Of a stretch of DNA of 64,000 nt, positions 40,034 to 59,962 are shown piece after piece. A model generated the notes under the pieces. The model was not told where the DNA came from and did no database searches. It was given only the letters and a program-made list of their open reading frames with translations. Positions within the stretch are counted from its first letter, which is position 1; the number at the start of each line of letters is the position of its first letter. Both the position numbers and the translations under genes were made by a program. Source of the stretch: a plasmid; the sequence record CP132319.1; one strand, given 5' to 3'.

Positions 40034-40034
40034 A

Positions 40035-41342: not shown

Positions 41343-41381
41343 TGACCCTGTAGCCGCTACAGGCTGTAGACCTAAGCTCGA
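41343..41381 (+). promoter_or_regulatory. MerR(PbrR/CadR)-type promoter: -35 TTGACC plus dyad CCTGTAGccgCTACAGG, 19-nt spacer
   Basis: Same motif as at 43394 and 46474-46504; 200 nt upstream of lspA. Confidence 0.55.
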
Positions 41382-41586
41382 ACGAATCTGACGAAGGAAG
41401 CCTATCCAAGAGATGCGGCGGGGTCCCATTTCGCGGCATTCAGTCCGTCGAGCAATCTTTGTTTGGCGCCAGCCGAGAAGCGGGACTAACTGCAGCGACG
41501 GCGCGGGGCGACATCGGCGCGCGGTGTGGGCGCCTCGCGCTCGACTTCCACTAACGATCAGGCCCAGCCAATGAGGGGAAATCATA

Positions 41587-42108: not shown

Positions 42109-42193
42109 ATGAAGACGTTGTCGGGTTTCAGCCGCACGCGACGCTGGACCAGTGCATCGGCTTTCTATGTGCAGAAATAATGGGAAAACTTGA

Positions 42194-42799
42194 ATGAGCG
42201 AGAAACACCGCGAGGACGAAATACGGCTCGACGCGAGAAATGCCTCCGAGCGAACGACGCTTGTCTGGGTCCTTGCCATCAATCTGTTGCAAGTGATCGT
42301 CGCCGGCGTCGTTGGCGTCTTCGCTGACTCGACCGGTCTTCTGGGAGCAGCCCTCGATAATATGGGCGACGCTGGCGTTTATGCCATCAGCCTTTACGCC
42401 GTCGGTCGGACGGTAGTGGCAAAGGTGCGTGTTGCGCGCCTGTCCGGAATCCTGCTGATCGCCCTGGGTCTGGCACTTTTCGTCGAGGTAGGGCGTCGGT
42501 TTTTCGTAGGCGCCGAGCCGATTGGCTTGGCCATGATCATTACCGCCTTCATCAATGCCGCGCTGAATGTCATTTGCCTGAAGCTTCTTCGATCGCATCG
42601 CGATCAGGGCGTTCATCTGAAGGCGTCGTGGATTTTCACGACGAACGATATGATCGCCAATGCCGGCATTGTCGTTTCGGGCGCAGCGGTTATGTTCTTC
42701 GCTTCTCCTTATCCGGATCTGGTTATCGGGGTGTTGGTTGCAGGCATCGTCCTGCGGGGTGGCTGGGAAATCCTGGAAGAGGCGAAGGACGCATCTTAG
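42194..42799 (+). CDS. Cation-diffusion-facilitator-like membrane protein, TM domain only (no cytoplasmic C-terminal domain)
   Basis: Six predicted TM helices; CDF-like ...DSTGLLGAALDNMGDAG and ...NDMIANAGIVV motifs; 201 aa. Confidence 0.6.
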   Translation: MSEKHREDEIRLDARNASERTTLVWVLAINLLQVIVAGVVGVFADSTGLLGAALDNMGDAGVYAISLYAVGRTVVAKVRVARLSGILLIALGLALFVEVGRRFFVGAEPIGLAMIITAFINAALNVICLKLLRSHRDQGVHLKASWIFTTNDMIANAGIVVSGAAVMFFASPYPDLVIGVLVAGIVLRGGWEILEEAKDAS

Positions 42800-42982
42800 C
42801 GGCCTGCAATGTAGGAGATCGGCGTTCATTGCAGTTCACGACGCTGGTCGGCAATTCGCCTGCCGCCACAGACGCATTGGAACGAGGGCCTCAAACAGTC
42901 GAATGCGCTCTCTGCCTGCGCCGGCCACCCACTTCCCAGCCGCCGCTTTACATCAAAGCGGCTTTTGAATCTGTGTTGGCCC

Positions 42983-43390
42983 CTAATGCTTCGGCGAAAG
43001 AGAATCGATGATGCGGCAGTCGGCGACCGTTCCACAACTACACTGGTCGATAATACTGTCTAGTTCCGCCTTCAACGCCTGCAGGTCGCGGATCTTGCGC
43101 TCGACCTCGGCGCGATGCTCGTTGGCAATTTCGTCGACCGCCATGCATGACTGGTCACGGTCGTCACTCAGCCTCAGAAGACCGCGTACCTGATCGAGGG
43201 AAAATCCAAGGTCGCGCGCGCGACGGATGAAGCTCAGTCGATTCAGGTGCGCATGGTCATAGGCGCGGTAGTTGCCCTCGGTGCGGCCCGGTTCGGGCAG
43301 CAAACCGTTCTTTTCATAAAAGCGGATCGTTTCAACCTTGGTGCCGGTTTTCTTGGCAAGATACCCGATTGTCAGAATGTTTGGCGACAT
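42983..43390 (-). CDS. MerR-family Cd/Pb/Zn-responsive regulator (CadR/PbrR/ZntR-like)
   Basis: HTH LTIGYLAKKTGTKVETIRFYE; metal-binding Cys (C79-like ...DQSCMA and C-terminal CSCGTVADCRII); divergent from the P-type ATPase. Confidence 0.8.
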   Translation of the reverse strand: MSPNILTIGYLAKKTGTKVETIRFYEKNGLLPEPGRTEGNYRAYDHAHLNRLSFIRRARDLGFSLDQVRGLLRLSDDRDQSCMAVDEIANEHRAEVERKIRDLQALKAELDSIIDQCSCGTVADCRIIDSLSPKH

Positions 43391-43393
43391 GGC

Positions 43394-43424
43394 TTGACCC
43401 TGTAGTTGCTACAGGCCTCATGTA
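43394..43424 (+). promoter_or_regulatory. MerR(PbrR/CadR)-type promoter of the Zn/Cd/Pb ATPase gene: -35 TTGACC plus dyad CCTGTAGttgCTACAGG
   Basis: Perfect 7-bp dyad in the spacer; about 35 nt upstream of the ATPase start. Confidence 0.65.
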
Positions 43425-43456
43425 AGGCGCCAGTTCGTAATTGTCGAGGTGACGTC

Positions 43457-45592: not shown

Positions 45593-45693
45593 GAGCAACT
45601 GGAAAGGAGGCCGATGCCCTGCTTTCCGGATCTACAGCGCTTTCCGAGAAATTCGAAATTCATCAATCGACCCTCGTTAAGGGGGTCGCCAAA

Positions 45694-46008
45694 ATGCGTC
45701 AGTTCGAAGATGCGATCGAAATAATGCCGGGAGAAACCCTAGCTTTGAGGGCGGGCGCATCGCACATCATGTTTGCGAAGCTTAGGAAGCAACTGGCGGC
45801 AGGGGAGCGCTTCGCCGTCAGTCTCAACTTCAAGAACGCTGGCTCGACAACCGTGGACTTGGCTGTCCAGGGGCTCGGGGTTTCCAAGCCCGCCAAAGCC
45901 CATGACGACGCAGGCCGAAGGCTGACTGACCGTGCTGAAGATTGTCCGCACCGCTGCTTAGTTGCCGGCGCGATTCCTGTCGCGATCTTAATCGGCGCCT
46001 GGCCCTGA
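45694..46008 (+). pseudogene. Fragment resembling the C-terminal half of a PCu(A)C/DUF461 periplasmic copper chaperone (N-terminus missing)
   Basis: ...LRAGASHIMFAKLRKQLAAGERFAVSLNFKNAGSTTVDLAVQ matches the PCuAC H(M)x10M and beta-sandwich end, but no signal peptide or first half is present. Confidence 0.35.
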
Positions 46009-46211
46009 TGCCGCCGCCCGCGGGGCGGGAGCGTGCAACCTGCGATCGCCACAGGTCTCCAGGTGCTCTTATCCTCTCGACGGCCTGTCTGTCAGGTCAG
46101 GAACTCGCAATAGAACCAATTCGTGCTGAGCGAGGTCGAAACCGAGAGACAGCCGCGGTGTCAGGCCGGATGTAGAAGAGGTCGACCGGCCTGACGGAGA
46201 CGTCGGGGCGC

Positions 46212-46421
46212 TCAGTTCGAGACCGTGTATCCGAGGTCCACAACCGTCTCCTGCAGTATGTCGGCGCCGATGATCTCGGGATCGATCTGAACGATCGCCC
46301 TAGTGCTATCGAGTGAAACGTTGACGTCCAGCACGCCGGGAAGCGCGCGTAGGCCCTTCTCGACCTTTGCGACACAGCTCGCGCAGTCCATTCCGACCAC
46401 ATTCATTTCTACAGTTTCCAT
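46212..46421 (-). CDS. HMA-domain metallochaperone (CopZ/MerP-like)
   Basis: METVEMNVVGMDCASCVAKVEK; about 69 aa; RBS AAAGGA. Confidence 0.8.
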   Translation of the reverse strand: METVEMNVVGMDCASCVAKVEKGLRALPGVLDVNVSLDSTRAIVQIDPEIIGADILQETVVDLGYTVSN

Positions 46422-46473
46422 CTGAAATCCTTTCAGGACTAAGCTGACGTGAGTTAAGTTTCCCAACGCGTCA

Positions 46474-46504
46474 AAACTTTGCACCCTGTAGCGGCTGCAG
46501 GGTC
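46474..46504 (-). promoter_or_regulatory. MerR(PbrR/CadR)-type promoter: -35 TTGACC plus dyad CCCTGCAGccgCTACAGGG, driving the HMA chaperone
   Basis: Third copy of the CTGTAG/CTACAG box; TTGACC on the minus strand. Confidence 0.55.
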
Positions 46505-46791
46505 AACCCAAAGGGCTCACGGTTCCTAGAAATTTTTGGGCCCTTCGATCATTTGCCGCCAAGCCAATGTCCGGGAGGCATCCGCAGCCAATGAAGCGCC
46601 GTTGATCCAGTACCACTCTGCATCGTGCTACGTACCGAGTTAAAAACCTAGGAACGCAGATCAGAGCTATAAAGCCCCAGATTGAGGTGTTTAGCAGGGC
46701 CTCTGCCCTGCACGCTTAATCAGATGGTGGTGGAACCGGGTCACGCTTCATACCGGATGCTATGCGATATGTTTGCCGGCGGGCATTGTGA

Positions 46792-47640
46792 TTACTCTGG
46801 TGTGACCGGCAGTGCTCGCTTGTGTGCGGTCGCTGTGTACATGGTGAGGATTCGCTCGCGAGCTGGTTCCGTGATCACCTTACCCTCGAGAAAATCGTCA
46901 ATCTCGTCGTAGGTGACGCCGTAAGCCTCCTCGTCAGGACGCAGCGGCGCATCGCTTTCTAGGTCGGCGGTCGGCACCTTGTCGATCAGTTCCTGTGGCG
47001 CTCCGACGTGCTTTGCAATTGCACGGACGCGGCGCTTGGTAAGACCCGAAAGTGGAAGGATATCCGCAGCGCCGTCTCCGAATTTCGTGAAGAACCCCAT
47101 CAGCGCCTCGGCGGCGTGATCCGTACCGATCACCAAGCCGCCGACGGCGCCCGCCAACGCGTATTGCGCAATCATGCGCTGACGTGCCTTGATATTGCCG
47201 AGGTGGAAATCGACCCTCTCTACCTCAAACAATTCTCCTGCCTGACGACGGATCTCTGCAAGCATGGCATCGGCAGCCGGTTTGATGTCGATGGTGACGG
47301 TTCGATCGGGACGGATCGCCGCTAAGGCTTTCTGCGCATCGGCTTCATCAGCCTGAACGCCATACGGGAGCCGCACTGCGACGAATTCCGCTTTGTGGCC
47401 GTGCTCGCGCAGGCGGTTTGAAGCGGTCTGGGCCAGGATGGCGGCGGTCAGGGAATCCACGCCGCCGCTGATGCCAAGGACAAAGGCCCGTAATGCCCTA
47501 GTGCGAAGGTAATCGGCCAGAAACGCGATCCGACGTTCTGTCTCTGCTGCTGCATCGAAGCTCGGTGCGACGCCGAGTGCGTGGATGATATCGGCCTGTT
47601 GATGCAGCAAGGTCGTTCCTTCGTTTGACGAACGCATCAA
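46792..47640 (-). CDS. nadE: NH3-dependent NAD+ synthetase
   Basis: PP-loop SGGVDS in ...VLGISGGVDSLTAAILAQ; 282 aa. Confidence 0.85.
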   Translation of the reverse strand: MMRSSNEGTTLLHQQADIIHALGVAPSFDAAAETERRIAFLADYLRTRALRAFVLGISGGVDSLTAAILAQTASNRLREHGHKAEFVAVRLPYGVQADEADAQKALAAIRPDRTVTIDIKPAADAMLAEIRRQAGELFEVERVDFHLGNIKARQRMIAQYALAGAVGGLVIGTDHAAEALMGFFTKFGDGAADILPLSGLTKRRVRAIAKHVGAPQELIDKVPTADLESDAPLRPDEEAYGVTYDEIDDFLEGKVITEPARERILTMYTATAHKRALPVTPE

Positions 47641-47855
47641 TAGCTAAGCCCAGGCGCGGTGACGTCAAGGCCTTTCATAGGGGCTGATCAATTCCCTCGA
47701 TGTCGGTCATCTGTTTCGCGTTCGTCAGTTGGGCTGGAAGGCGTCTACCCGGGAAGCGGCAAGCTTACAGCGGAAAGTTGCCTGTTGCAGCGCGTGGTCG
47801 TGGCTTAATTTGTGTGACCAATGGCCGAGGCCGTCGTGAGGATCCGGCCATTAGG

Positions 47856-49880
47856 TCATTCAGCAGCCTGCAGACTGCGCCTCTGGTTCTCGGTTACAGC
47901 ATGATCCGCTTCGGATGCGGCTGGCAGTCGCCATCCCTTGATCAGCCCATAGACGGCCGGAATGACGACCAGCGTCAGCAGCGTCGACGACACCATGCCG
48001 CCGATCATCGGTACGGCGATCCGTTGCATGATCTCCGATCCCGTGCCGGTCCTCCACAGGATCGGCACGAGGCCGGCCATGATGGCGGCGACGGTCATCA
48101 TCTTCGGTCGGACGCGCTCGACCGCGCCGACCATGATCGCCCGATTGAGGTCCGGCTTCGAGAAGGAACGACCCTCCTGTTCGCAGGCTTCGCGTTGCTC
48201 CTTCAGGGCGTGGTCGAGATAGATCAACATGATCACCCCGGTTTCCGCCGCCACGCCTGCAAGGGCAATGAAGCCGACGGCGACCGCCACCGAGGCGTTG
48301 AAGCCCATCCACCACATCAGCCAGATGCCGCCGACCAGCGCGAACGGCAGCGACAGCATTACGATGACAGTCTCCGTCAGCGCCTTGAAGTTCAGGTAGA
48401 GCAGCAGGAAGATCAGGGCCAGGGTCAGGGGAACGACGACGGCCAGTCGTGCTTCGGCCCGTTGGAGATATTCGAACTGACCGCTCCAGGCGACGGAATA
48501 GCCTGGAGGCATCGTCACGCTCCTTGCCACTGCCTGCTGGGCTTCGGCGACATAGCCGCCGAGATCGCGGTTGGCGATGTCGACGTAGATGTAGACGGCG
48601 AGCTGGCCGTTTTCGGTGCGGATGGTTGTCGCTCCGCGCGTCAGCTTGACGTCCGCGACCTCGCCGAGAGGAACCGTCCCGCCGCCCGGCAGGGATATCT
48701 GCACGTCCCTGGCGATCGACTGCGGATCGCTTCGCGAGGCCCGTGGATACCGTATTGCCACGCCATATCGTTCCCGGCCTTCGACCGTCTGGGTAACGAC
48801 CTCGGAGCCCAGCGCCATGCCGACAACGTCCTGGACATCGTTGATGGTCAGCCCGTAACGGCCGAGCGCCGTTCGATCGGGAACGATGTCGAGGTAGTAG
48901 CCGCCGATCACCCGCTCGGCATAGGCGCTCGACGTACCGGGGATTGTCTTCAGCACGCTTTCGATTTGGCGAGCGACTTTTTCCATCTCGCCGAGATCTG
49001 TACCGTAGACTTTAACCCCGACGGGCGTTCTGATCCCGGTCGACAGCATATCGATGCGGGCGCGGATCGGCATGGTCCAGGCATTGGAGACGCCGGGGAA
49101 CTGCAGGGCGGCGTCCATCTCCTGTTTCAGGCTGTCGGTGGTGACCCCCGGCCGCCATTCCGACTTCGGCTTCAGGGTGATGATCGTCTCGAACATCTCC
49201 GTCGGCGCCGGGTCGGTGGCGGTCAGCGCCCGCCCGGCCTTGCCAAAGACGGTTTGGACTTCCGGGAAGGACTTGATGATGCGGTCCTGCGTCTGCATCA
49301 GCTCGGCCGCCTTGGTGACCGATATGCCGGGCAAGGTGGTCGGCATGTACATCAGCGTGCCCTCGTCGAGATTGGGCATGAACTCGCTACCGATATGCTG
49401 GACGGGCCAGGCAGTGACCCCGAGGATGACGAGCGCCGCCAGAATCGTCAATGTCTTGACCCGCAACACCCCAGCAATGACGGGGCGGTAGATCCAGATC
49501 AGGAACCGATTGAGAGGGTTCTTGTGCTCGGGAACGATATAGCCCCGAACGAAGAGGATCATCAGTGCAGGCACAAGCGTCACCGATAGCAGGGCGGCAG
49601 CAGCCATCGAGAAAGTCTTGGTGAAGGCGAGCGGCCCGAACAGCCGGCCTTCCTGCGATTCCAGTGTAAAGATCGGCAGGAACGACACGGTGATGATCAG
49701 CAGGCTGAAGAACAGCGCCGGCCCGACCTCGCTCGCCGCCTCTATGAGGATTTCCACCCGTGGCTTGTCAGGCGGCGCACGCTCGAGATGCTTATGGGCA
49801 TTCTCGATCATGACGATCGCCGCGTCGATCATCGCGCCGATGGCGATAGCGATGCCGCCGAGGCTCATGATGTTTGCACC
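47856..49880 (-). pseudogene. 5'-truncated cusA/czcA paralog (lacks the first approximately 370 codons)
   Basis: From GIGANIMSLGGIAIAIGAMIDAAIVMIENAHKHLE onward it aligns with cusA at 29415 (high protein identity, roughly 80% by eye at DNA level); upstream of that point the sequence is unrelated. Confidence 0.7.
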
Positions 49881-50100
49881 GATCCCGGTTCGGGCAGAGG
49901 TCGCGGACCTGTCCATGCTGTCGGCGCACGCCGACGCAAACGAGCTGATGCGCTGGCTGTCCGGCTTCCGTCGGCCGCCGTCCCGCGTGTTCATCGTGCA
50001 TGGTGAAGACGATGCCTCCGAAGCGCTGCGCGTGCGGATCGACCGCGAGCTTGGATGGAACGCAGTCGTCTCACGCCAGAATCAGGCTTTCGACCTATGA
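49881..50100 (+). pseudogene. 3'-terminal fragment of an MBL-fold beta-CASP gene (only the last approximately 70 codons)
   Basis: ...PVRAEVADLSMLSAHADANELMRWL...VFIVHGEDDASEAL matches beta-CASP motif C and the C-terminus; it abuts the truncated cusA paralog. Confidence 0.5.
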
Positions 50101-51629
50101 CGATCAACAACGTCGAACCCGAGGTTCCTTCTCAGCCGACGCTACGCGTGCGGCGCCTGCGGCTGCACACTCAGCACCAGGCCGTGGTGGTGATGCGCAC
50201 CGATTGCCATGTCTGCCGCTCGGAGGGTCTGTCCGCGCGCACCCAGGTCCTCGTCTCGATCGGCGCGAGACAGGTACAGGCAACGCTCTTTCAGGTCGAA
50301 GGAGATGCATTGCTCGCTCAGGATGAAGTCGGTCTTTCTGAAACAGCCTGGCAGATCCTCGGCGTTAGCGAGAATGACAATGTGACGGTGACCCATCCTC
50401 CGGCCGTGGAGTCTCTGACGAGCGTGCGCCGTCGCATATATGGCAATCGCCTCGACGCGCACGCCTTTGCCGAAATCGTGAGCGACGTGGTCGCAGGCCG
50501 CTATACCGAGGTCCATCTCGCCGCCTTTCTGACCGCCAGTGCCGCGCTTCCTCTCGACGAGAGCGAGACTGTTGACCTCACGCGCGCCATGGTCGATGTC
50601 GGCGACCGGATGAGCTGGAATGCTCCGATCGTTGTGGACAAGCACTGTGTCGGCGGGTTGCCGGGCAATCGAACCACGCCGATCGTCGTCGCGATCGTGG
50701 CCGCCAATGGCCTTGTCATGCCGAAGACGTCTTCGCGCGCGATTACCTCGCCAGCCGGCACCGCCGACACAATGGAAACGCTTGCCCCTGTCGACCTCAG
50801 CATCGAAACCCTTCGACGCGTCGTGGAAGCAGAAGGCGGATGCATCGCCTGGGGCGGGGCGGTGCATCTCAGCCCCGCCGACGACATTTTCGTCCGGATC
50901 GAACGCGAACTCGACGTGGATACCGAGGGACAGCTTGTCGCTTCCGTCCTTTCAAAAAAAATCGCCGCTGGCTCGACGCATGTGGTTATCGACATCCCGG
51001 TTGGGGCAACCGCCAAGGTGCGCAGCGAAGCGGCCGCCGATCAGCTCGCCAGTCGCCTCAGCGCCGTCGCTGCCCGTTTCGATCTGGCCCTGACCTGCGT
51101 CCAGACCGACGGTTCGCAACCCGTCGGGCGCGGCATCGGCCCAGGTCTAGAAGCCTTCGACGTCCTGGCGGTTCTTCAAAACGCGCCGGATGCGCCGGAC
51201 GATCTGCGACGCCGCGCGATCCTGTTGGCGGGCGCCGCGCTTGAGATCGGTGGAAAGGCCGCAAAGGGGAAAGGTGAAGCGCTTGCGTTGGCGACCTTGG
51301 TCGACGGTCGTGCCTGGTCGAAGTTCATGGCGATCTGCGAGGCGCAAGGCGGACTTCGTGAGCCACCGAAGGCCGCACAGGTTCATCCGTTGATCGCGTC
51401 GCGCGCCGGCCGCGTCGTCCATATCAACAATCGCAAAATCGCCCGACTCGCCAAGCTCGCCGGAGCGCCGGAGTCGAAGGCGGCAGGCGTCCAAATGGCC
51501 GTCCGCCTCGGCGACGAGATCGCCAGCGGCCAGCCGCTTTTGCACGTTCACGCCGAGACGGCTGGTGAACTTGGCTACGCACTGGACTATGCCGCGCATG
51601 CAGGCGACCTTTTCGAGGTCGAAAGTTGA
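50097..51629 (+). CDS. Thymidine phosphorylase-family protein (TP-like, about 510 aa)
   Basis: Glycosyl-transferase family-3 fold motifs ...DKHCVGGLPGNRTTP... and ...SRAITSPAGTADTME; C-terminal PYNP domain; ATGA coupling with the upstream fragment. Confidence 0.7.
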   Translation: MTINNVEPEVPSQPTLRVRRLRLHTQHQAVVVMRTDCHVCRSEGLSARTQVLVSIGARQVQATLFQVEGDALLAQDEVGLSETAWQILGVSENDNVTVTHPPAVESLTSVRRRIYGNRLDAHAFAEIVSDVVAGRYTEVHLAAFLTASAALPLDESETVDLTRAMVDVGDRMSWNAPIVVDKHCVGGLPGNRTTPIVVAIVAANGLVMPKTSSRAITSPAGTADTMETLAPVDLSIETLRRVVEAEGGCIAWGGAVHLSPADDIFVRIERELDVDTEGQLVASVLSKKIAAGSTHVVIDIPVGATAKVRSEAAADQLASRLSAVAARFDLALTCVQTDGSQPVGRGIGPGLEAFDVLAVLQNAPDAPDDLRRRAILLAGAALEIGGKAAKGKGEALALATLVDGRAWSKFMAICEAQGGLREPPKAAQVHPLIASRAGRVVHINNRKIARLAKLAGAPESKAAGVQMAVRLGDEIASGQPLLHVHAETAGELGYALDYAAHAGDLFEVES

Positions 51630-52150
51630 CGTGGCGGCTGTCCATTTGGATACGCCGGCACCGTCCGGCCGGCGCATTCTCGATCTACCAGCGCTTGATG
51701 CACTGGATGGTCCTTATCCTGTGTATCATCCAGGTCCCCACGGCCTGGGCGATCCAACGCACGCACATGGCGCACCTTTTCTTGAAACCTAAACCCTTCG
51801 ACCTTTTCCTGCATCAGGTTCACGCCTGGAGCGGATGGCTGATTATGGCGCTGGCGCTCAGTCAACTTATTCTGCGCTTCACATATGGCCGACCACCTCC
51901 GATCCAGGGCATGTCGGTGCTTGAGCGCATGATCGCAGGGGTCACTCATGCGGTGCTCTACGGCCTATTGCTCGCACTGCCGATCACAGGCACGATCGCT
52001 ATGTACGTGACGTTCCGCATCGCTTCCCTGCACAGCCTGCTGAGCTGGATGCTTCTGGTCGTTGCGACCACTCACGCCCTCGCTGCTCTGTGGCATCACT
52101 TCTGGCGTCGCGACGACGTGCTGCGGCGAATGATCAGGAACACGAAATAG
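51626..52150 (+). CDS. Cytochrome b561-family (Ni/Fe-hydrogenase b-type cytochrome-like) membrane protein
   Basis: Four TM helices with conserved His (LMHW..., HQVHAWSGW, AGVTHAVLYG, ATTHALAALWHH); the start codon is uncertain (TTG 51626 or an internal Met). Confidence 0.65.
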   Translation: MTWRLSIWIRRHRPAGAFSIYQRLMHWMVLILCIIQVPTAWAIQRTHMAHLFLKPKPFDLFLHQVHAWSGWLIMALALSQLILRFTYGRPPPIQGMSVLERMIAGVTHAVLYGLLLALPITGTIAMYVTFRIASLHSLLSWMLLVVATTHALAALWHHFWRRDDVLRRMIRNTK

Positions 52151-52369
52151 CGCGCCGGACAGTCAGCCCACGGGTAAATTCTATCTAGTCGAGCGCGCTT
52201 CTCCGCGCGAGCAGCACACTCATTTGCGGAGATTGGCGCGCAGGTCGTTTCGGTGAGCGGCCTCGCAAGCATTGATCCCTACGTGTTTGATGCAGCGCAA
52301 AGTGATCATTCTGGATCTGCGCTAGATTTGCCCCCAGTTTCTACATTCAAGCAAACCGAAGGATGAGCC

Positions 52370-52801
52370 GTGGTGGCCGCCGGCGTGACAATGGTCAAGG
52401 CGTTCAGAAGGTCGCATAATTGGGCGACCGCCTTGCGGCGCGGGTTTATCCTTTTCTTCGCCATCGCGTTCGGGCTTACGGCGTTTCTCACAGATGGCGG
52501 GCATCAAGCGCGTGCTGCTTCAAGGGAGGGCATCCCGGCGCTCATGACTCAAGCTGGGGATTGTGCCGACCTCCTCGTGCGCATGCCCTGCGACAACGAT
52601 ACCCAACGCGGCGCCGAGCACCCGTGCGACAGCGGTCACTGCCTGTCGAGCCTCGGGTGCTTCCTCTGCGCTCCGCTGAACACGGCCTGGAGCTGGCGCA
52701 CGTTGAACGCCGAGACAGTCTCGCCGGCTGCATCGCCCGTGCCCTCATCCGCGGAGTTGCGTCGTCAGAAGCGACCTCCGCGATCCATCTTGGTCATCTG
52801 A
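52370..52801 (+). CDS. Small membrane-anchored Cys-rich protein (member 5 of the paralog family)
   Basis: TM (GFILFFAIAFGLTAFL); DCADLLVRMPCDNDTQRGAEHPCDSGHCLSSLGCFLCAP; C-terminal ...KRPPRSILVI. Confidence 0.45.
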   Translation: MVAAGVTMVKAFRRSHNWATALRRGFILFFAIAFGLTAFLTDGGHQARAASREGIPALMTQAGDCADLLVRMPCDNDTQRGAEHPCDSGHCLSSLGCFLCAPLNTAWSWRTLNAETVSPAASPVPSSAELRRQKRPPRSILVI

Positions 52802-53120
52802 GCACCTTCGGCCTGTTCTGTCCGTGTGCTCCAGCCGACCCGAGGACTGGCACAATGCCTTAGTCTTCCGACCGTGCGCGTCCCAGGCCGCCCAACGATA
52901 CGGCCGAGGAGACGAGCCGTTCTGCGTGACGCCGACGTGACATAGCCTCCAATCGTCGGCTGCCGGCGAGCCAGAAAGGGCCATGCACGGACCTTGCCGA
53001 AATCGGTAGGCAGCGGCACGCGAGGAAGTCTTCGGTATCCGCACGCCGGGCCACTTTTCAAACTCACCTCAAGATGTGCTCGAGCAGCCCGCAAGGCTGC
53101 GAGCCGAGGAGCTGAATACC

Positions 53121-54260
53121 ATGTTAAAGACCCACTCGACCCGTTCGATTTCCATCACCGCGGCAGTCCTGACAGCAACCGCGATTCGCAGACGTGCGGC
53201 CATGCTGGCCTTCGCGACGGCATCGGCCCTGGTGCTTGCTATTCCGTTCGCCGCCACCGTCCGAGCGGAGCCTGCTGCAACCGGCTTCGTCTATACGGCC
53301 GATGAATTTGGCAACACCGTTAGCCGCATCGACCTTGCCACGGAAAAGATCGACATCGTTCCGGTCCCGATCACGCCCCACAACGTGCAGTTCGTATCGG
53401 GAAAAGATTTGGTGCTGGCGGTGGGCCTGCCGGTCGCCGGCAAAGCTGAAGACGCTCATGCGTCCAATGGGGCTGGCCATGGCGGCGACGGACATGGTGA
53501 TGCCGCTGTCGCAGGCCAATTGATCGTCCTCGACGCGGCCGATATTTCCTCCGGCGTGAAGGCGTCGATCCCCGTGGGTGGGCATCCTGCGCATGTGATC
53601 GCAGACGCGCAAGGCAATCGCGCCTACGTCTCGAATTCCGAAGACGACAGCTTGTCGGTCGTTGATCTTGCCAAGGGCGAGGTCGTCGCCACGGTCGGCA
53701 CCGGCGACTACCCCCACGGCCTGCGGATGAGCCCGGATGGAAGCGCCATCTATGTCGCGAATGTCCAGGACGGTACTGTTTCGGTTATCGACACAACGGC
53801 GCTTTCGGAAGTTGCCAGGATCAAGGTAGGCGTTGCGCCCGTCCAGGTCGGCTTCACACCTGACGGAAAGCGGGTCTATGTCTCGCTGCGCGATGAAAAC
53901 AAGGTCGCCGTTATCGACACGCAGTCGCGCGAGGTGATCGCACGCATCAATGTCGGCCGTTCGCCCATCCAGGTTTACGCCACGCCTGATGGCCGGCTGG
54001 TTTACGTCGCGAACCAGGGAACCGAAACGGAGCCGGATGAGACGGTCTCGGTTATCGATGTCGTAGGCGGGAATGTCGTGAAGACCATCCAGACGGACAA
54101 GGGCGCTCACGGCGTGACGGTCGTTGCCGACGGAGCCTTTGTCTTCGTCACCAACATCGTGGCCGGGACCGTTTCCCAGATCGACGTCGGCAGCCAGTCC
54201 GTGGTCAAGACATATGCTGTCGGCAAGGGACCGAACGGCGTCACCTATCAGGCGCAGTGA
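53121..54260 (+). CDS. Secreted YVTN-family seven-bladed beta-propeller protein with a His/Gly-rich insert
   Basis: Repeated ...YV(S/A)N...D..vsviD... blades; RRR-containing signal (possibly Tat); insert AHASNGAGHGGDGHGDAA. Confidence 0.7.
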   Translation: MLKTHSTRSISITAAVLTATAIRRRAAMLAFATASALVLAIPFAATVRAEPAATGFVYTADEFGNTVSRIDLATEKIDIVPVPITPHNVQFVSGKDLVLAVGLPVAGKAEDAHASNGAGHGGDGHGDAAVAGQLIVLDAADISSGVKASIPVGGHPAHVIADAQGNRAYVSNSEDDSLSVVDLAKGEVVATVGTGDYPHGLRMSPDGSAIYVANVQDGTVSVIDTTALSEVARIKVGVAPVQVGFTPDGKRVYVSLRDENKVAVIDTQSREVIARINVGRSPIQVYATPDGRLVYVANQGTETEPDETVSVIDVVGGNVVKTIQTDKGAHGVTVVADGAFVFVTNIVAGTVSQIDVGSQSVVKTYAVGKGPNGVTYQAQ

Positions 54261-54381
54261 TGCAACGTCGGGGCGGCGCTTCGCCGCCCCGCACGACCTA
54301 AGCCTCAAACCTATGAGCAGGACGGCCGGCATGCAGGCTTCATCAATGGACAAAGGGTCGGCGAGGCTCTATTCTTTGCCC

Positions 54382-54732
54382 ATGCTTCGCGCGTTGCTTA
54401 TCATTGTTACAACCATCTCGCTTGCCGCTGCTTCTTTTGCCGTTCAAGCACACGAGACCCGCATGTCCGGGATGTTGGAACGCGCCGCGCTGACGCAGCA
54501 CATGGAGCAAGCCTCTTCTTCGATGGCCGCTTGCAGCGAAGGGAAATCCTGCAAAGCAGATGCCGGATTGTGCACCTTCGCCTGCGCCGGAATATCGGCC
54601 TGGCTTCCGGTTGTGCGTACTTCGGCAAAGCAAATCAGCTCGCGGCAAAAATATCCCTTCCCGCCGGATGCCGTCTTCGTTGCGGCAGCTCCCGGCCGGA
54701 ATGATCGCCCTCCTATATCGCGCCTCCTCTGA
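54382..54732 (+). CDS. Small membrane-anchored Cys-rich protein (member 6 of the paralog family), directly upstream of a multicopper oxidase gene
   Basis: TM (LLIIVTTISLAAASFA); CSEGKSCKADAGLCTFACAG; C-terminal ...DRPPISRLL. The start could also be the upstream Met at 54331 or 54346. Confidence 0.5.
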   Translation: MLRALLIIVTTISLAAASFAVQAHETRMSGMLERAALTQHMEQASSSMAACSEGKSCKADAGLCTFACAGISAWLPVVRTSAKQISSRQKYPFPPDAVFVAAAPGRNDRPPISRLL

Positions 54733-54807
54733 GCCTGCGGCGGGGCTGATCCCGCTGCGATCCATTTGGACCTTTCAGGCGGGACAGATCGTCCCGAGGT
54801 GACGAAT

Positions 54808-56292
54808 ATGACGACCTTTTCACGACGCGGCTTCCTCGCCGCCAGCGCAGCCATGCTTGCTGCATCCCATTTCCCCATCAGGGCCTACGGCCAGGACGCG
54901 GCTGCGATCCGCCTGGCCGCCACCAGCCGCACGCTCGATATAGACAATCGACCGGCCACCGTTTTCGGACTTGCTGGTCCCAACGGGCAGGGGCTGCTCC
55001 TCGATCCGGGCGAGCGATTTCGGGTGGATCTGACCAACGATCTCGCCGAGTCCACGATCATTCATTGGCACGGCCAGATTCCCCCGAACGCTCAGGACGG
55101 CGTCCCGGATATGCCGCAGCCGCTTCTTCAGCCCAGTGAAACGCGCAGCTTCGATTTCGCGCCCCAGCCCGGAACGCACTGGATGCACAGCCATGTGCCG
55201 ATCCAGGAAATGCGATTGCTCGCCGCGCCGCTGATCGTCCGGAGGGCAGAAGACCTATCCGCCGATCGGCAGGAAGTCGTCCTGTTCCTGCACGACTTCG
55301 CGTTCAAGACACCGGAAGAAGTGCTGGAAGAGATCACCAGCGCAAGCGCTGATGGACATGGCGCTGCCGGCATGTCACGCGCGATGCAAGGCATGAACCA
55401 TGGCGGCATGCCTGGAATGAACCAGGGCGAGGCCGGGGGAATGGGCTCGATGGCCATGGATATGGGTAACATGGCGATGGATCTCAACGACTACGACTGG
55501 GATGCCTATCTCGCCAATGACCGAACCCTGTCCGATCCCGATGTCGTTCAGGTCGAACGCGGCGGCCGGGTTCGCCTCCGTGTCATCAACGCAGCCGCAG
55601 CCACCGTTTTCTGGATCGACACGGGCGAAGCACAAGCCCGGCTCGTCGCCGTCGACGGGCATGAGGTCCAGCCGGTCGCGGGTTCGCGGTTCGGGCTGGC
55701 CATGGGGCAGCGTCTCGACCTGGAGATCGACCTTCCAAATGAGACCCGCGCATGGCCGATTCTGGCGCTCAGGGAGGGCGAACGTGAAAGGACCGGCATT
55801 ATTCTCGCCCCCGCGGGCGCCACGATCGACAGGATCGATTCCCTTTCAGCGAATGACGCCCCGGCCTTCGACACGGACTTGTCTCAGGAGTCACGGCTGG
55901 TCGCTGTCGACACGCTTGCCGCCCGTCCGGTGGATCGAAGCCACATGATCATGCTCGGCGGCTCGATGCAGCCCTATGTCTGGACTATCGACGGAGCACC
56001 ATGGGGCAAGCATCGGCCGGTTGCCGCAACGAGCGGCGATCGGGTGGAACTGATGTTCCACAATATGTCGATGATGGGGCACCCGATGCATCTGCATGGG
56101 CATGCATTCCAGGTTGTTGGCATCAACAGGCGACGCTTCGAAGGTGCGCGCCGCGATACCGTGTACATACCGCCGATGTCGATGGTCACTGTTGCCCTTG
56201 ATGCCGGCGAGGCCGCGAGCTGGATGTTGCATTGCCATCATATGCCGCATCTGGCCACCGGGATGATGACCGAGTTCAGGATCGCTGCATGA
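54808..56292 (+). CDS. copA: CopA/PcoA-type multicopper oxidase (paralog of 20110..21573) with Tat signal and Met/Gly-rich insert
   Basis: MTTFSRRGFLAASAAM Tat motif; HWHGQ, HPMHLHGHAFQVV, HCHHMPHLATGMM; Met-rich GMNHGGMPGMNQGEAGGMGSMAMDMGNMAMD. Confidence 0.85.
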   Translation: MTTFSRRGFLAASAAMLAASHFPIRAYGQDAAAIRLAATSRTLDIDNRPATVFGLAGPNGQGLLLDPGERFRVDLTNDLAESTIIHWHGQIPPNAQDGVPDMPQPLLQPSETRSFDFAPQPGTHWMHSHVPIQEMRLLAAPLIVRRAEDLSADRQEVVLFLHDFAFKTPEEVLEEITSASADGHGAAGMSRAMQGMNHGGMPGMNQGEAGGMGSMAMDMGNMAMDLNDYDWDAYLANDRTLSDPDVVQVERGGRVRLRVINAAAATVFWIDTGEAQARLVAVDGHEVQPVAGSRFGLAMGQRLDLEIDLPNETRAWPILALREGERERTGIILAPAGATIDRIDSLSANDAPAFDTDLSQESRLVAVDTLAARPVDRSHMIMLGGSMQPYVWTIDGAPWGKHRPVAATSGDRVELMFHNMSMMGHPMHLHGHAFQVVGINRRRFEGARRDTVYIPPMSMVTVALDAGEAASWMLHCHHMPHLATGMMTEFRIAA

Positions 56293-56723
56293 AACCGCTC
56301 TGGATCGCGGTCGCCGCAACTCTCCTGGCGGCGGCCGGTGCGATCTTGGTCGGAAAGGGACGGTCCGGTCAGGAGGCGAGCGATCGCATCGCCCTTGGCC
56401 GGGCAGTCTATCTAGCGAACTGTGCGAGCTGTCACGGCACGAAACTCGAAGGCCAGCCCGACTGGCGCAGCCCGGGCACGAGCGGCCGCCTTCCGGCGCC
56501 GCCGCATGACAAGACCGGTCACACCTGGCATCATTCGGACAGGCAGCTCCTCGCAATCATCACCGATGGGACCGCCGCGGTGGTTGGCGGTGGCTACGAG
56601 AGTGACATGCCCAGCTTTCGGGAGGCTCTGACCTCCGCCGAGATCGAGGCTGTCCTCGACTACATCAAGAGTACCTGGCCGCAACGAGAGGCAGACTACC
56701 AACGCCGCATCTCGAACGGCTGA
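56289..56723 (+). CDS. Class I c-type cytochrome (single CxxCH), translationally coupled to the MCO gene
   Basis: TM/signal then CASCHG; ATGA overlap with the MCO stop. Confidence 0.75.
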   Translation: MKPLWIAVAATLLAAAGAILVGKGRSGQEASDRIALGRAVYLANCASCHGTKLEGQPDWRSPGTSGRLPAPPHDKTGHTWHHSDRQLLAIITDGTAAVVGGGYESDMPSFREALTSAEIEAVLDYIKSTWPQREADYQRRISNG

Positions 56724-56864
56724 CACGCCGGAGGCCACGAAAACAATTTCGTGGCCCCACATCGCCATCGCGCGCCGCCCCACCACCACATTCATGCCGA
56801 CGGGTTCGGCAGTTGATGGCGGCAGAGAGGGTGTTCGGCGGCCTAAAGACATAAGGATTCACAA

Positions 56865-57296
56865 ATGAACAAGAGAAACGTCTTCGCTCTGCTCGTCGCC
56901 GCGGCAGCGGTTGCGGGCTTTGCGCTTTGGAATCGAACCGGATCGGAAGACGAAGCCAGAAGAGGAGTATCGGGCCAGGGGACGGCATTGTCGGTTGTCG
57001 TGCCTTCGTCATTGTCCGACACCGCAAAGATGGGAGAACGAGCTTTCAACGCCGTCTGTGCAGCGTGCCACGGCAAGAACGCGGCCGGAACCGATGCCGG
57101 CCCGCCGCTCATCCATCGGATATACGAACCTTCTCACCACGGAGACTACGCCTTTGAAATGGCCGTCGCCAACGGCGTGCGCGCGCATCACTGGAAATTC
57201 GGAAACATGCCTCCTCAGCCGGGTCTGACGAGGGCCGACGTCGCTACGATCGTGGCCTATGTGCGCGAGCTTCAGCGGGCGAACGGCATCAATTGA
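56865..57296 (+). CDS. Class I c-type cytochrome (single CxxCH)
   Basis: Signal peptide; CAACHG heme motif; distal Met in ...GNMPPQPG. Confidence 0.75.
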   Translation: MNKRNVFALLVAAAAVAGFALWNRTGSEDEARRGVSGQGTALSVVVPSSLSDTAKMGERAFNAVCAACHGKNAAGTDAGPPLIHRIYEPSHHGDYAFEMAVANGVRAHHWKFGNMPPQPGLTRADVATIVAYVRELQRANGIN

Positions 57297-57421: not shown

Positions 57422-57790
57422 ATGCGAACTGGCATAACATGCGCATTTGTCGTTCTGGCTTTGCTGGTGTCGGCGTCAAATGCCCAAGAGGATCAGCCGT
57501 TTCATACGTCTTATTTCGCGGATGAAACGACCATCAGCCTGTCCGTGACCGTCGCGGCAACCTCTCTTGACCCGGAATATAATTTCGATGTGCAAGTCGC
57601 GCTCACGGAGCGCGGACCCGAGGGTCAGATCAGATTCATCGACCACAGCGCCCACCTTGCAAAGGTACGATGCGCCGCGCCGAAGGCCGTCATGATCGGC
57701 CAATCAGAGTTTATGCTGTCGGATTCGCCCGAGCCGGGGGATTGGAAGCAGGATCTCTGGCGCACCTTCTGCCTCCTGCCGGTCTCATGA
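57422..57790 (+). CDS. Small secreted protein of unknown function; paralog of 9057..9428
   Basis: Signal LALLVSASNAQ; shares ...QPFH..(E/Y)F.D...ISL...........(D/E)..F..DV.V.LTE..P.GQ......HLA.VRC.AP.AV..G..........P...DWK.DLW.T.C..PVS with the 9057 ORF. Confidence 0.6.
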   Translation: MRTGITCAFVVLALLVSASNAQEDQPFHTSYFADETTISLSVTVAATSLDPEYNFDVQVALTERGPEGQIRFIDHSAHLAKVRCAAPKAVMIGQSEFMLSDSPEPGDWKQDLWRTFCLLPVS

Positions 57791-57796
57791 GGAACG

Positions 57797-57822
57797 GGGC
57801 CGCGCTGCATCCAGCGCGGCCC
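57797..57822. terminator. Hairpin GGGCCGCGCTG-catc-CAGCGCGGCCC between convergent genes (candidate bidirectional terminator)
   Basis: 11-bp perfect stem read in the sequence. Confidence 0.45.
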
Positions 57823-57828
57823 TGTGCT

Positions 57829-58113
57829 TCACTTGACCTGGGTGACAGTCAGCTTTCCGTTGACGCGCTCGGCAACGAACTGGACCTTTGCGCCGACCTT
57901 GAGCTTTTCCAGCATCGCGTCATCAGCGACCTGGAATACCATCGTCATGGCCGGCATCTCGAGGTTCTTCAGCTCTTCATGGATGAGCGTGACCTTCTTC
58001 GCCTTCTCGTCCAGCTTCTTGACCGTGCCGCTGGTGAATTCCTGCGCGAAGGCGGCGGTGCCGAAGGCGAAGGCGACGGCGCCGGCGAGTGTGATTCTTG
58101 TGATAGCTTTCAT
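57829..58113 (-). CDS. cusF: CusF-like periplasmic Cu(I)-binding protein (second copy)
   Basis: Near-identical to 9520..9804 (…MPAMTMVFQVAD…KLTVTQVK). Confidence 0.8.
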   Translation of the reverse strand: MKAITRITLAGAVAFAFGTAAFAQEFTSGTVKKLDEKAKKVTLIHEELKNLEMPAMTMVFQVADDAMLEKLKVGAKVQFVAERVNGKLTVTQVK

Positions 58114-58131
58114 CGTCATTTCTGTTGCTCC

Positions 58132-58608
58132 TTATTTCTTCGCGACCGTGACGTCGCCGTGCATGCCGGAATCGTAGTGACCGGGAACGAGGCAGGCGAT
58201 CTTGAACACGCCGTCGTTGGTGAACTTCCAGACGATCTCGCCGGATTTTCCGGGCGCGAGGCGAATGGCGTTCGGATCCTCGTGTTCCATTTCCGGGAAT
58301 TTCTCCATCACGGCTTTGTGCTCCATGATCTTGTCTTCCTGGTCGAGCACGAATTCATGATCGACCTCGCCCGCATTCTTGATCGCGAAGCGAACGGTCT
58401 GGCCCTGGCGGACCTTGAAGGTGCTTGGTGTGAAGATCATCTTGCCGTCATCCGTTTCCTTCATCGTGACACGGATGGTCTGGGACGCCTTGGCCTTTTC
58501 ACCGGGTTCGCCAACGGCCATTTCGCCATGACCGCCCTCATGCGAACCGGATGCAAAAGCAGCGGTGGCAAACGTTGAGAGTAGCAGACCAACTAGAATG
58601 CGTTTCAT
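58132..58608 (-). CDS. Secreted cupredoxin (second copy)
   Basis: Homolog of 9822..10298 with the same C..H..M type-1 copper ligands. Confidence 0.8.
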   Translation of the reverse strand: MKRILVGLLLSTFATAAFASGSHEGGHGEMAVGEPGEKAKASQTIRVTMKETDDGKMIFTPSTFKVRQGQTVRFAIKNAGEVDHEFVLDQEDKIMEHKAVMEKFPEMEHEDPNAIRLAPGKSGEIVWKFTNDGVFKIACLVPGHYDSGMHGDVTVAKK

Positions 58609-58639
58609 AATCGTTTCCTTTATCGTTTCTGGGAGGAAG

Positions 58640-59962
58640 TTAACCGTGATTGGAATGGCCAGACGGAAGTTGTGTCTTGGCATCTTTCGCTTTGACAGGC
58701 TCGGGCAAGCTCCCGGTCCATTCCCACGCCTGCGTGCCGGGAGGGTTCTCGTACCAACCCGGATCGCTGTAGTCGTCCGCTGAGATACCCTCGCGGACCT
58801 TCACCACGGAGAACATGCCGCCCATTTCGATCGGGCCGTGGGGACCCCACCCGGTCATCATGGGGACGGTGTTCTCCGGTATTTCCATCGACATTTCGCC
58901 CATATCCGCCATGCCGGCCGTCCCCATGGGCATGTATTCGGGACGGATCTGCCTGATCTTTTTTGCAACCTCCTTCTTGTCGACCCCGATGAATGTCGGG
59001 ATCTCGTGACCCATGGCATTCATGGTGTGATGCGACTTGTGGCAATGGATCGCCCAGTCGCCGACGTACTTCGCGTCGAACTCGTAGGCGCGCATCGCAC
59101 CGACAGGGATGTCGATGCTGACCTCGGGCCAGCGCGCCTCCGGCCTGACCCAGCCGCCATCGGTGCAGGTCACCTCGAAATCGTAGCCGTGCATGTGGAT
59201 TGGATGGTTCGTCATCGTCAGGTTACCGACGCGAACACGAACCCTGTCGTTCTTGGAAACGACGAGCGGATCGATCCCTGGAAAGACGCGCGTGTTGAAC
59301 GTCCAGAGGTTGAAGTCGGTCATTTCCATGATCCGGGGCACGTATGTTCCCGGATCGATGTCATAGGCGCTGAGCAGGAAGACGAAATCCCGATCCACCG
59401 GCATGAACTTCGGGTCCCGGGGATGGATGACGAAGAAGCCCATCATCCCCATCGCCATCTGTACCATCTCGTCCGAGTGCGGGTGGTACATGAAGGTGCC
59501 GGATTTCACGAGATCGAACTCGTAAACGAAGGTCTTGCCAGAGGGGATGTGAGGCTGCGACAGCCCGCCAAGACCATCCATCCCCGACGGCAGGATCATA
59601 CCGTGCCAATGAATGGTCGTGTGCTCCGGCAGCTTGTTGGTCACGAAAATGCGAACCCGGTCGCCTTCGACTGCTTCGATGGTCGGACCCGGTGACTGGC
59701 CGTTGTACCCCCAAAGATATGCGGTCATGCCTTCGGCCATCTCCCGCTCCACCGGCTCGGCAACGAGGTGGAATTCCTTCACCCCGTTGTTCATTCGGAA
59801 CGGCAAGGTCCAACCGTTGAGGGTGACGACCGGATTGTAATCTGGGCCGACCGTCGGCTTTACCGGGGTTTGCGTGGCCGCCGAGTCCATGAGAGCGGCT
59901 TCCGGCAAGCCCATGTTGGACGTTTGCGCCCAGGTCTTACGATAACGCTGCAATGGTGGCAA
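58640..59962 (-). CDS. Multicopper oxidase, second copy of the 452-aa type, with its N-terminal Tat signal replaced by unrelated sequence (probably non-exported and non-functional)
   Basis: Homology to 10328..11686 begins at ...W(A/G)QTSNMGLPEA; upstream of it the reading frame encodes MPPLQRYRKT instead of the Tat signal; the junction lies at about 59945, next to parDE. Confidence 0.7.
   Translation of the reverse strand: MPPLQRYRKTWAQTSNMGLPEAALMDSAATQTPVKPTVGPDYNPVVTLNGWTLPFRMNNGVKEFHLVAEPVEREMAEGMTAYLWGYNGQSPGPTIEAVEGDRVRIFVTNKLPEHTTIHWHGMILPSGMDGLGGLSQPHIPSGKTFVYEFDLVKSGTFMYHPHSDEMVQMAMGMMGFFVIHPRDPKFMPVDRDFVFLLSAYDIDPGTYVPRIMEMTDFNLWTFNTRVFPGIDPLVVSKNDRVRVRVGNLTMTNHPIHMHGYDFEVTCTDGGWVRPEARWPEVSIDIPVGAMRAYEFDAKYVGDWAIHCHKSHHTMNAMGHEIPTFIGVDKKEVAKKIRQIRPEYMPMGTAGMADMGEMSMEIPENTVPMMTGWGPHGPIEMGGMFSVVKVREGISADDYSDPGWYENPPGTQAWEWTGSLPEPVKAKDAKTQLPSGHSNHG

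Follow-up and report, generated by a model that had tools for sequence, protein, structure and literature searches.

The 64,000-nucleotide stretch of plasmid DNA analyzed here (sequence record CP132319.1, hereafter the window) carries eight consecutive plus-strand genes between positions 50097 and 57296, which encode, among others, a multicopper oxidase (MCO) and two c-type cytochromes. An earlier note on this DNA had described them as one redox cluster with an electron-transfer chain wired to the oxidase. All eight open reading frames (ORFs) were found in the ORF listing, seven of them are annotated in the plasmid record, and every domain call of that note was confirmed by profile searches against Pfam and NCBIfam, with the motifs of the oxidase and of the leader ORFs read from the translations. 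The first gene (50097-51629) belongs to the thymidine/AMP-phosphorylase family (TP-like; NF003338, 673 bits versus a cutoff of 434), and the second (51626-52150) encodes a cytochrome b561-family membrane protein (PF01292, E-value 3e-21, 76.4 bits versus a gathering score of 30.1). They are followed by a cysteine-rich ORF of 143 residues, Cys1 (52370-52801), with CDSGHC and CFLC motifs, by a secreted YVTN beta-propeller (53121-54260) with five TIGR02276 repeats (E-value 2e-50), and by a second cysteine-rich ORF of 127-133 residues, Cys2 (54331-54732), with the CxxxC motif CTFAC. A structured leader RNA (54724-54802) precedes the three-domain MCO (54808-56292; PF07732, PF00394 and PF07731). The two genes at the end of the series, cytc1 (56289-56723) and cytc2 (56865-57296, identified by a Pfam match), encode class I cytochromes c with the haem motifs CASCH and CAACH, respectively, and the start of cytc1 overlaps the MCO stop codon by 4 nucleotides (ATGA), as had been predicted.

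The eight genes do not make up a single unit. Synteny was examined in 80 species genomes with a relative of the MCO, which contained 66 diverged MCO loci, 44 of them with full 7-kb flanks. Among these 44 loci, a Cys2 homolog neighbored the oxidase in 39, cytc1 in 32, YVTN in 15 and cytc2 in 5, whereas neither the TP-like nor the b561 gene was found in a single one. The idea that the eight genes are one unit therefore failed the phylogenetic co-occurrence check that the earlier note had itself proposed. The block from Cys1 to cytc2 (Cys1–YVTN–Cys2–MCO–cytc1–cytc2) recurs at 87-100% protein identity on nine plasmids and in 12 species genomes, and its sub-modules were found again in diverged lineages. 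By tblastn, Cys1 was near the MCO in none of the 44 loci; nevertheless, Cys1-like ORFs recognized by their features (about 136 residues, CCQxCL, a [KR]PPR[LP]I tail) are located ahead of YVTN genes in diverged lineages. A promoter and terminator scan of 49.5-58.2 kb gave terminators at background frequency and weak promoter matches, from which no operon limits could be drawn. We consider the stretch to be, probably, a mosaic in which the tail of a truncated operon adjoins a periplasmic copper-detoxification module with two translational switches, the whole lying in a plasmid copper island.

Leader ORFs and the RNA preceding the oxidase

CutF of Rhodobacter capsulatus, a protein of 118 residues with a Sec signal, a C69xxxC73 motif and a C-terminus rich in proline, is exported co-translationally and acts as a copper sensor. 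When copper stalls the nascent CutF chain, a stem-loop masking the Shine-Dalgarno (SD) sequence of cutO is melted (PMC9973294; bioRxiv 10.1101/2025.02.05.636593). Judged by the rule set for CutF-like proteins given in PMC9973294, both cysteine-rich ORFs of the window qualify as predicted CutF-like leaders. Each starts with a hydrophobic segment followed by an AxA-like site, a putative signal peptide that was read from the sequence without a signal-peptide predictor. At their C-termini, Cys1 ends in QKRPPRSILVI and Cys2 in NDRPPISRLL.

Both ORFs are real and conserved. A Cys2 homolog is located directly upstream of the MCO in 55 of the 66 diverged loci. Across 27 lineages, C63, C76 and C80 (the last two forming the CxxxC motif), R121, P122 and P123 are invariant, and the tail reads [ED]RPP[KI]xRLL. 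The spacer between Cys2 and the MCO, 75 nucleotides in the window, measures 67-76 nucleotides in 26 of the 27 lineages and 58 nucleotides in the remaining one (L049).

The RNA structure of this region and its pairing with the MCO SD sequence are conserved. The window leader folds with a minimum free energy of -42 kcal/mol (z -2.2), and RNAalifold over the 27 lineages returned three helices. In the first helix, the last two Leu codons of Cys2 (CUCCUC, 54724-54729) serve as an anti-SD and pair with the MCO SD (GAGGUG/GAGGAG, 54796-54802). The second is a covarying hairpin after the Cys2 stop codon, at about 54737-54758, and the third a GGGAC/GUCCC hairpin (54781-54795) abutting the SD. Bases were paired in 95.9% of the alignment cells as opposed to 39-56% in slid controls, compensatory changes were observed in 11 of the 18 pairs, and none of 500 shuffles reached the observed values. 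The anti-SD begins 12 nucleotides past the second Pro codon of Cys2; therefore, a ribosome paused at the RPP motif would be expected, from this geometry, to cover or unwind it.

By analogy with R. capsulatus CutF, we propose that periplasmic copper would bind the Cys motif of the leader during nascent-chain export, and that the ribosome would pause at the C-terminal RPP motif. A ribosome paused on Cys2 would cover the last Leu codons, freeing the ribosome-binding site of the MCO. For this switch, we rely on the characterized homologous system together with the covariation found here. The order of the genes suggests that Cys1 may gate the YVTN propeller likewise.

The oxidase, its cytochromes and the propeller

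The MCO is composed of three cupredoxin domains and bears an SRRGFL twin-arginine translocation (Tat) motif, a Met-rich insert and four His-rich copper motifs (HWHG, HWMHSH, HPMHLHGH and HCHHMPHLATGM), among them the HCHxxxHxxxxM signature, in agreement with a three-domain oxidase of the CutO/CueO kind. Its homologs number in the thousands in alphaproteobacteria, the top 120 of them sharing at least about 70% identity with it, and its relatives in the PDB are multicopper oxidases including CueO. Because of the Tat signal, the Met-rich insert and the CutF-like neighbor, we assigned the MCO to the CutO type of copper-tolerance oxidase, which it fits, and predict cuprous oxidase activity for it. 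In one metagenomic homolog (P0256), an apparent fusion of propeller and oxidase was traced to a deleted oxidase gene, of which an in-frame remnant persists on a short contig, and was discarded.

A paralogous MCO at 20110-21690 shares 50% identity with the MCO and has a divergent cytochrome c' neighbor, for which the PF01322 match upheld the earlier prediction. This class II cytochrome c' is a third kind of cytochrome c beside a CutF–MCO pair (20110-22952), near CueR and a P-type ATPase, and a further CutF-like ORF with the C-terminal sequence GFEPPRSVA (21647-21997, minus strand) precedes the paralogous oxidase.

The protein encoded by cytc1 is 49% identical (E-value 9e-43) to CopJ encoded on plasmid pMOL30 of Cupriavidus metallidurans, and we regard it as the predicted ortholog of CopJ. 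Family members share C45, C48 and H49 of the CxxCH motif, the ligand M107, and an insert, PPHDxxGHTWHHxD, that we did not find in any solved structure. In cytc2, the motifs PPL.H.IY.P.HH.D and HHW are invariant. In both families, the invariant His clusters lie, in sequence, between the CxxCH motif and the axial Met. Both cytochromes align over the whole domain with the cytochrome c domain of a NirK fusion protein, albeit weakly (E-values of 0.01-0.2 with single sequences and 2e-5 with a profile). An orthology of cytc2 with CopT of pMOL30 was considered and rejected, as the two share only generic cytochrome c similarity.

Dereplication of the MCO at 90% identity yielded 30 lineages. In 13 of them a CopJ homolog adjoins the CutF–MCO pair, either directly downstream or divergently, about 600 nucleotides upstream of the leader ORF, and in two others cytc2 alone is adjacent. 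In the reverse test, all seven sampled CopJ homologs were found in copper clusters, with various partners. In L090 and L100, CopJ is coupled to an MCO by a 4-nucleotide overlap, and in L091 it is divergent from a CutF–MCO pair. Without an adjacent oxidase, it overlaps by 4 nucleotides an upstream gene for a DUF305 (CopM-like) protein in L098 (4432-5453) and L101 (4360-5513), and an upstream ORF of 97 residues in L099 (4711-5441). The seventh homolog, on chromosome 2 of Cereibacter (R.) sphaeroides (L088, 5411-7058), is part of an operon consisting of a CutF-like ORF (…RRPPPEHRPPRGSSRV), CopJ and a CopI-like cupredoxin. This unit lies beside cbbII Calvin-cycle genes and may be the counterpart of the copI–copJ pair of R. 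gelatinosus. CopJ is thus not exclusive to the MCO and is elsewhere coupled to DUF305 proteins or CopI cupredoxins.

The second family, cytc2, is present on 161 plasmids, mostly of roseobacters, and flanks oxidases in L090, L093 and L094. On roseobacter plasmids, a cytc2–MCO–CopJ trio with the 4-nucleotide MCO/CopJ overlap recurs around an oxidase that is only 26% identical to the window MCO. In Dinoroseobacter shibae pDFL36-01 (L093, 1-10845), ccmF, dsbE, ccmH, ccmI and dsbD are located directly upstream of cytc2, two more cytochromes c, MCO, CopJ and DsbA. Both cytochrome families occur almost only in copper clusters, near oxidases, CopI or DUF305. Synteny that is conserved over several arrangements and oxidase families therefore lends good support to a functional link of the cytochromes with copper handling.

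The annotation of the pMOL30 cop cluster gives CopJ as a putative cytochrome c (PMC12029693). In favor of the copper module, copJ is among the cop genes up-regulated in C. metallidurans under a multi-metal mix (PMC11647585), and copper induces a protein named CopJ, a putative member of the same family, in R. gelatinosus (PMC4600104, PMC10434068). The papers we found on CopJ give it no assigned function.

The seven-bladed propeller with a His/Gly-rich insert, which had been predicted from the sequence, was reproduced by an AlphaFold2 model (pLDDT 87.7) with seven blades and a disordered insert at residues 108-127. Homologs at 53-85% identity retain the GHGGxGHG loop. Residues H87, H155, H158, H199, H330, N88, Q242, Q284 and N372 are invariant, and in the strand list of the model most of them are found where the innermost strand of a blade begins or directly beside that point, with H155 just before the strand. 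Paracoccus-type homologs carry an N-terminal DUF305 domain and others a C-terminal Met-rich tail. Three homologs of 540-635 residues (P0293, P0333 and P0358) have, besides a Met-rich C-terminal stretch, a conserved domain (…RLKIGEIAAAGD…VQKLAFNRYPGLVRQ) that spans some 60 residues and is without a Pfam match. The His/Gly loop, the His-lined hub and the fusions to DUF305 or Met-rich segments point to binding or buffering of periplasmic copper as the most likely role of the propeller, with an enzymatic copper centre as a further possibility. We also considered whether the propeller could be a nitrous oxide reductase of the NosZ or L-NosZ type and dismissed this reading: NF052460 scored 82 bits versus a cutoff of 700, there are five invariant His residues rather than seven, and a cupredoxin or other electron-entry domain is absent. 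Our literature searches on YVTN proteins in copper resistance retrieved nothing specific.

The truncated left flank and the surrounding island

The TP-like and b561 genes are the hitch-hiking tail of a separate operon and lie outside the copper module. An intact version of this operon is found on plasmid 3 of Pseudorhizobium flavum (L096), where genes for a metallo-beta-lactamase (MBL)-fold/beta-CASP hydrolase, the TP-like enzyme and b561 follow each other with a 4-nucleotide overlap at each junction. In the window, the b561 start likewise overlaps the TP stop by 4 nucleotides, and of the MBL gene the last 72 codons are left (49882-50097, plus strand; RMMBL domain by Pfam), 85% identical to residues 381-452 of the intact P. 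flavum protein. The remnant meets a minus-strand cusA pseudogene fragment, cusA' (47856-49886), at 49882-49886 in a clean deletion junction, and the deletion left TP–b561 without their upstream gene. The fragment covers CusA residues 382-1049, over which it is 83% identical to the full-length CusA of the window by tblastn, and the Pfam ACR_tran match on it spans profile positions 379-1020 only.

Close b561 homologs (tblastn E-value ≤ 1e-15) were present on only eight plasmids in PLSDB, namely six copies of the island, the P. flavum operon and one Bosea plasmid, on which the gene follows a copper ATPase. Among the 80 species genomes, TP and b561 occurred only in near-identical island copies, and partial plasmid matches (H7-H9) end at differing points left of the core. 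On the right side of b561, a gap of 220 nucleotides and the Cys1 ORF intervene before the remaining genes. The b561 protein falls short of the equivalog model for E. coli CybB (47 bits versus 170). We place TP and b561 outside the conserved MCO unit because of their absence from all 44 diverged loci, the truncation junction and the variable left breakpoints. As an aside, genes for type II GAPDH, a phosphoketolase (annotated as 'xylulose 5-phosphate 3-epimerase'), ribose-phosphate pyrophosphokinase, an MBL hydrolase and a TP-like phosphorylase recur in copper or heavy-metal islands, as in Paracoccus sp. AK26 (L003) and P. flavum.

The window as a whole is a heavy-metal island with two copies of CusA, CusB, CueR, a two-component system, P-type ATPases, PCuAC, DUF411, DUF305 and four copper oxidases. 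Immediately downstream of cytc2 lies a plus-strand gene for a secreted hypothetical protein of 122 residues (57422-57790), which travels with the neighboring oxidase, CopI and CusF genes and is absent from diverged MCO loci. Like the two leader ORFs, it had no Pfam match at E-values up to 10. These neighboring genes form a convergent module on the minus strand (57829-59962), identified with Pfam, which consists of CusF (57829-58119), a CopI-like cupredoxin (58132-58683; 39% identical to pMOL30 CopI) and a copper oxidase of the two-domain type (58640-59962). The oxidase–CopI–CusF module and the 122-residue ORF are duplicated in the window (9069-13206 and 57422-59962) with protein identities of 94%, 83%, 84% and 45%, respectively; the paralog of the 122-residue ORF adjoins the second CusF copy at 9069-9425. 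The left copy, with its core at 9.5-11.7 kb, retains a TolC gene. The context is one of copper detoxification throughout, comprising CutF-type leaders, P-type ATPases, CusABF, CopI, CopG/DUF411 and CueR, and thus speaks against a respiratory role or a metal oxidation that conserves energy.

Plasmid NZ_CP132308.1 of Shinella sumterensis matches the stretch at 100% identity, and plasmids from Agrobacterium, Rhizobium and Ciceribacter match it at 99.8%. Relative to NZ_CP132308.1, the offsets differ by about 3.4 kb (window 32585-50000); that record is about 3.4 kb longer, so the window is not exactly NZ_CP132308.1. Near-identical copies exist on plasmids of Shinella, Agrobacterium, Rhizobium, Ciceribacter and Pseudorhizobium, including one from a human-associated isolate, which indicates that this metal-resistance determinant is actively spreading.

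A probable copper-detoxification module and its alternatives

The claim of the earlier note that loci of the CopA/PcoA type encode no cytochromes was too strong, as the pMOL30 cop cluster already includes CopJ. For the composition as a whole, of which that note was aware of no exact characterized example, precedents exist in the cutF–cutO switch (PMC9973294) and in CopJ/CopI of pMOL30. The window is closest to the cutFOG operon of R. capsulatus, a comparison that for CutF and CutO rests on published descriptions rather than on a sequence alignment. In both, the gene immediately preceding a Met-rich oxidase with a Tat signal encodes a small leader, putatively exported in the window, that has a CxxxC motif and a C-terminus rich in proline, and a structured spacer hides the SD of the oxidase. 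A CutF-like gene neighbors 40% of the members of the large alphaproteobacterial oxidase family (PMC9973294). In cutFOG, however, CutG, a DUF411 protein, is encoded downstream of the oxidase, whereas the window MCO is followed by a CopJ-type cytochrome c and a second cytochrome c, with a DUF411 gene elsewhere on the plasmid. The C-terminal motifs differ (DRPPISRLL in the window, PEPEGPPPRL in R. capsulatus CutF), the leader ORF of the window contains the anti-SD arm in its final codons, and a second leader-plus-propeller unit is present upstream. The locus therefore seems to be a modified form of the cutF–cutO copper-tolerance operon, in which CopJ stands in for CutG, a second cytochrome c is added and an upstream YVTN propeller would be gated by its own leader.

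With the cop cluster on pMOL30 of C. metallidurans CH34 (copF-G-J, copI-D-C-B-A), the window shares CopJ with its PPHDxxGHTWHH insert, CopI, an oxidase, DUF411 and P-type ATPases, all on a plasmid. There, CopJ comes after CopG and the ATPase CopF, without coupling to the oxidase, whereas it is coupled in the window. The pMOL30 oxidase is of the CopA/PcoA type with CopBCD and only 27% identical to the window MCO, and the cop region examined contains neither a YVTN propeller nor a cytc2 homolog. The roseobacter module cytc2–MCO–CopJ–DsbA…YncE–CopA (D. shibae pDFL36-01 and the R. pomeroyi megaplasmid) contains both cytochrome families, the 4-nucleotide overlap, and a YncE/YVTN propeller and copper ATPase nearby. 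It differs in its shorter, distantly related oxidase of about 464 residues, in the position of cytc2 upstream instead of downstream, and in that no CutF-like leader is annotated. Literature searches for the D. shibae cluster, or for a copper module of oxidase and cytochrome c, found nothing specific.

Another parallel is the ncgABC–nirK cluster of Nitrosomonas europaea, in which we take NcgA to be a copper oxidase-type protein encoded together with two c-type cytochromes. The window resembles this cluster (PMC6967387) in that combination, but NcgA is a two-domain oxidase from a context of nitrite and nitric oxide tolerance, without copper resistance. NirK with a fused cytochrome c (PDB 3ziy) offers a structural precedent for electron transfer from a class I cytochrome c to type 1 copper. 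The copL–copA pair of Xanthomonas and Stenotrophomonas is different again: its CutF-like protein falls into another sequence cluster, the oxidase downstream is of the CopAB type, and cytochromes are missing.

Taken together, the detoxification module would work as follows. Once the leader has released the SD, the Tat-exported MCO would be made together with the CopJ-type cytochrome c via the start/stop overlap and would oxidize Cu(I) to Cu(II) with O2, and the propeller under control of Cys1 would hold periplasmic copper. The cytochromes most likely shuttle electrons between copper sites or blue-copper centres (MCO, CopI) and the general respiratory chain; it is also conceivable that they would accept the electrons of Cu(I) oxidation when O2 is limiting. 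The roles that we propose for CopJ, cytc2 and the propeller are candidate functions, deduced from sequence features and gene neighborhoods.

Several observations weigh against this interpretation. At the window locus itself, the evidence consists of gene predictions and is genomic in nature. In about half of the MCO lineages (15 of 30) neither cytochrome gene is adjacent, which makes the cytochromes accessory. Coding and ribosome binding constrain the anti-SD:SD helix in both of its arms as well, so their conservation is partly non-structural. Neither leader ORF matches the Pfam model DUF2946 (PF11162), even at an E-value of 10, and 5 of 27 Cys2 homologs match it only weakly (best E-value 0.0087); in the published work, DUF2946 is the closest model to CutF, with CutF itself outside it (PMC9973294). 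The spacer of 319 nucleotides between Cys1 and YVTN, on the same strand, showed no significant structure (z -0.8) and supported no SD-shielding fold. Finally, a Foldseek search of the YVTN model against the PDB found generic seven-bladed propellers only, from which no function could be assigned; the best match was the archaeal YVTN domain 1l0q, followed by hydrazine synthase beta, with NosZ in 44th place.

The reading of the earlier note was a chain of all eight genes, in which electrons would run from b561 via the cytochromes c to the MCO, acting as a terminal oxidase or in an energy-conserving oxidation of copper, iron or manganese. The common orientation and short gaps of the genes, the MCO/cytc1 overlap, the occurrence of b561 homologs in two other metal islands (in one, a further CutF–MCO pair follows 1.9 kb downstream) and the repeated adjacency of cytochromes and oxidases all speak for it. 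Part of this proposal stood: the recurrence in 13 of 30 lineages, the recurrent trio and the seven copper clusters of the reverse test imply that the cytochromes c are not accidental neighbors of the MCO. The link to b561 and TP and the preference for respiration over detoxification were not supported. The two genes are missing from the diverged loci, their operon is truncated here, and the gap and Cys1 set b561 apart. Moreover, the MCO would be gated by a copper-sensing leader typical of detoxification, every context sampled was a copper-efflux or copper-chaperone island, and CopJ also pairs with non-redox DUF305 proteins. We consequently hold the eight-gene chain to be very unlikely. A manganese or iron oxidation system is more improbable still. 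Multicopper oxidases can oxidize Mn(II) and Fe(II), and a cytochrome c is encoded beside some manganese oxidase genes, such as mofA–C of Leptothrix. However, the Met-rich insert, the CutF-type sensor and the context of CopJ, CopI, CusF and ATPases are copper-specific, and CutO, the closest characterized relative by operon logic, is a copper-tolerance enzyme (PMC8456105).

A less improbable alternative, although we still doubt it, is that the cytochromes serve in copper stress independently of the oxidase, with which they would have no more in common than the island and its regulation, either as copper-tolerant replacement carriers or as haem proteins that bind copper or interconvert Cu(II) and Cu(I). 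The idea of replacement carriers arises because the assembly of c-type cytochromes is a main periplasmic target of copper; copper is known to damage cytochrome c maturation (PMC4600104; PMC8456105), and ccm genes adjoin the cluster on the D. shibae plasmid. CopJ without an oxidase in R. sphaeroides, L098, L099 and L101, as well as the half of the MCO lineages that do without cytochromes, would also be accommodated. On the other hand, the 4-nucleotide coupling of MCO and CopJ recurs with two oxidase families at 26% identity, and where the oxidase is missing, the gene next to CopJ usually encodes the blue-copper protein CopI or a DUF305 copper protein. The coupling and these neighbors suggest that the cytochromes work with a copper protein rather than in general respiration, in line with the detoxification module that we favor.

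The CutF switch has so far been characterized only in R. capsulatus, and the same design is seen here in a widespread module on plasmids and integrative and conjugative elements of Rhizobiales and Rhodobacterales. Its RNA design is explicit and testable, as the leader's own last codons constitute the anti-SD. CopJ and cytc2 represent two uncharacterized cytochrome families with invariant His clusters that are repeatedly attached to oxidases, cupredoxins or DUF305 proteins in copper-resistance loci. A bolder extension, which we put forward tentatively and do not expect to hold in full, is that copper-binding CopJ and cytc2 could form a haem–copper relay with the blue-copper proteins MCO and CopI, the YVTN protein being a new periplasmic copper-centre protein under its own CutF-type switch. 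In such a relay, the electrons from Cu(I) oxidation would enter the respiratory, photosynthetic or denitrification chain instead of reducing O2. Copper tolerance that depends on the MCO or CopI persists under anoxia (PMC8456105, PMC4600104). If the cytochromes do remove the electrons of Cu(I) oxidation, the relay would explain this persistence and could account for periplasmic copper detoxification without O2.

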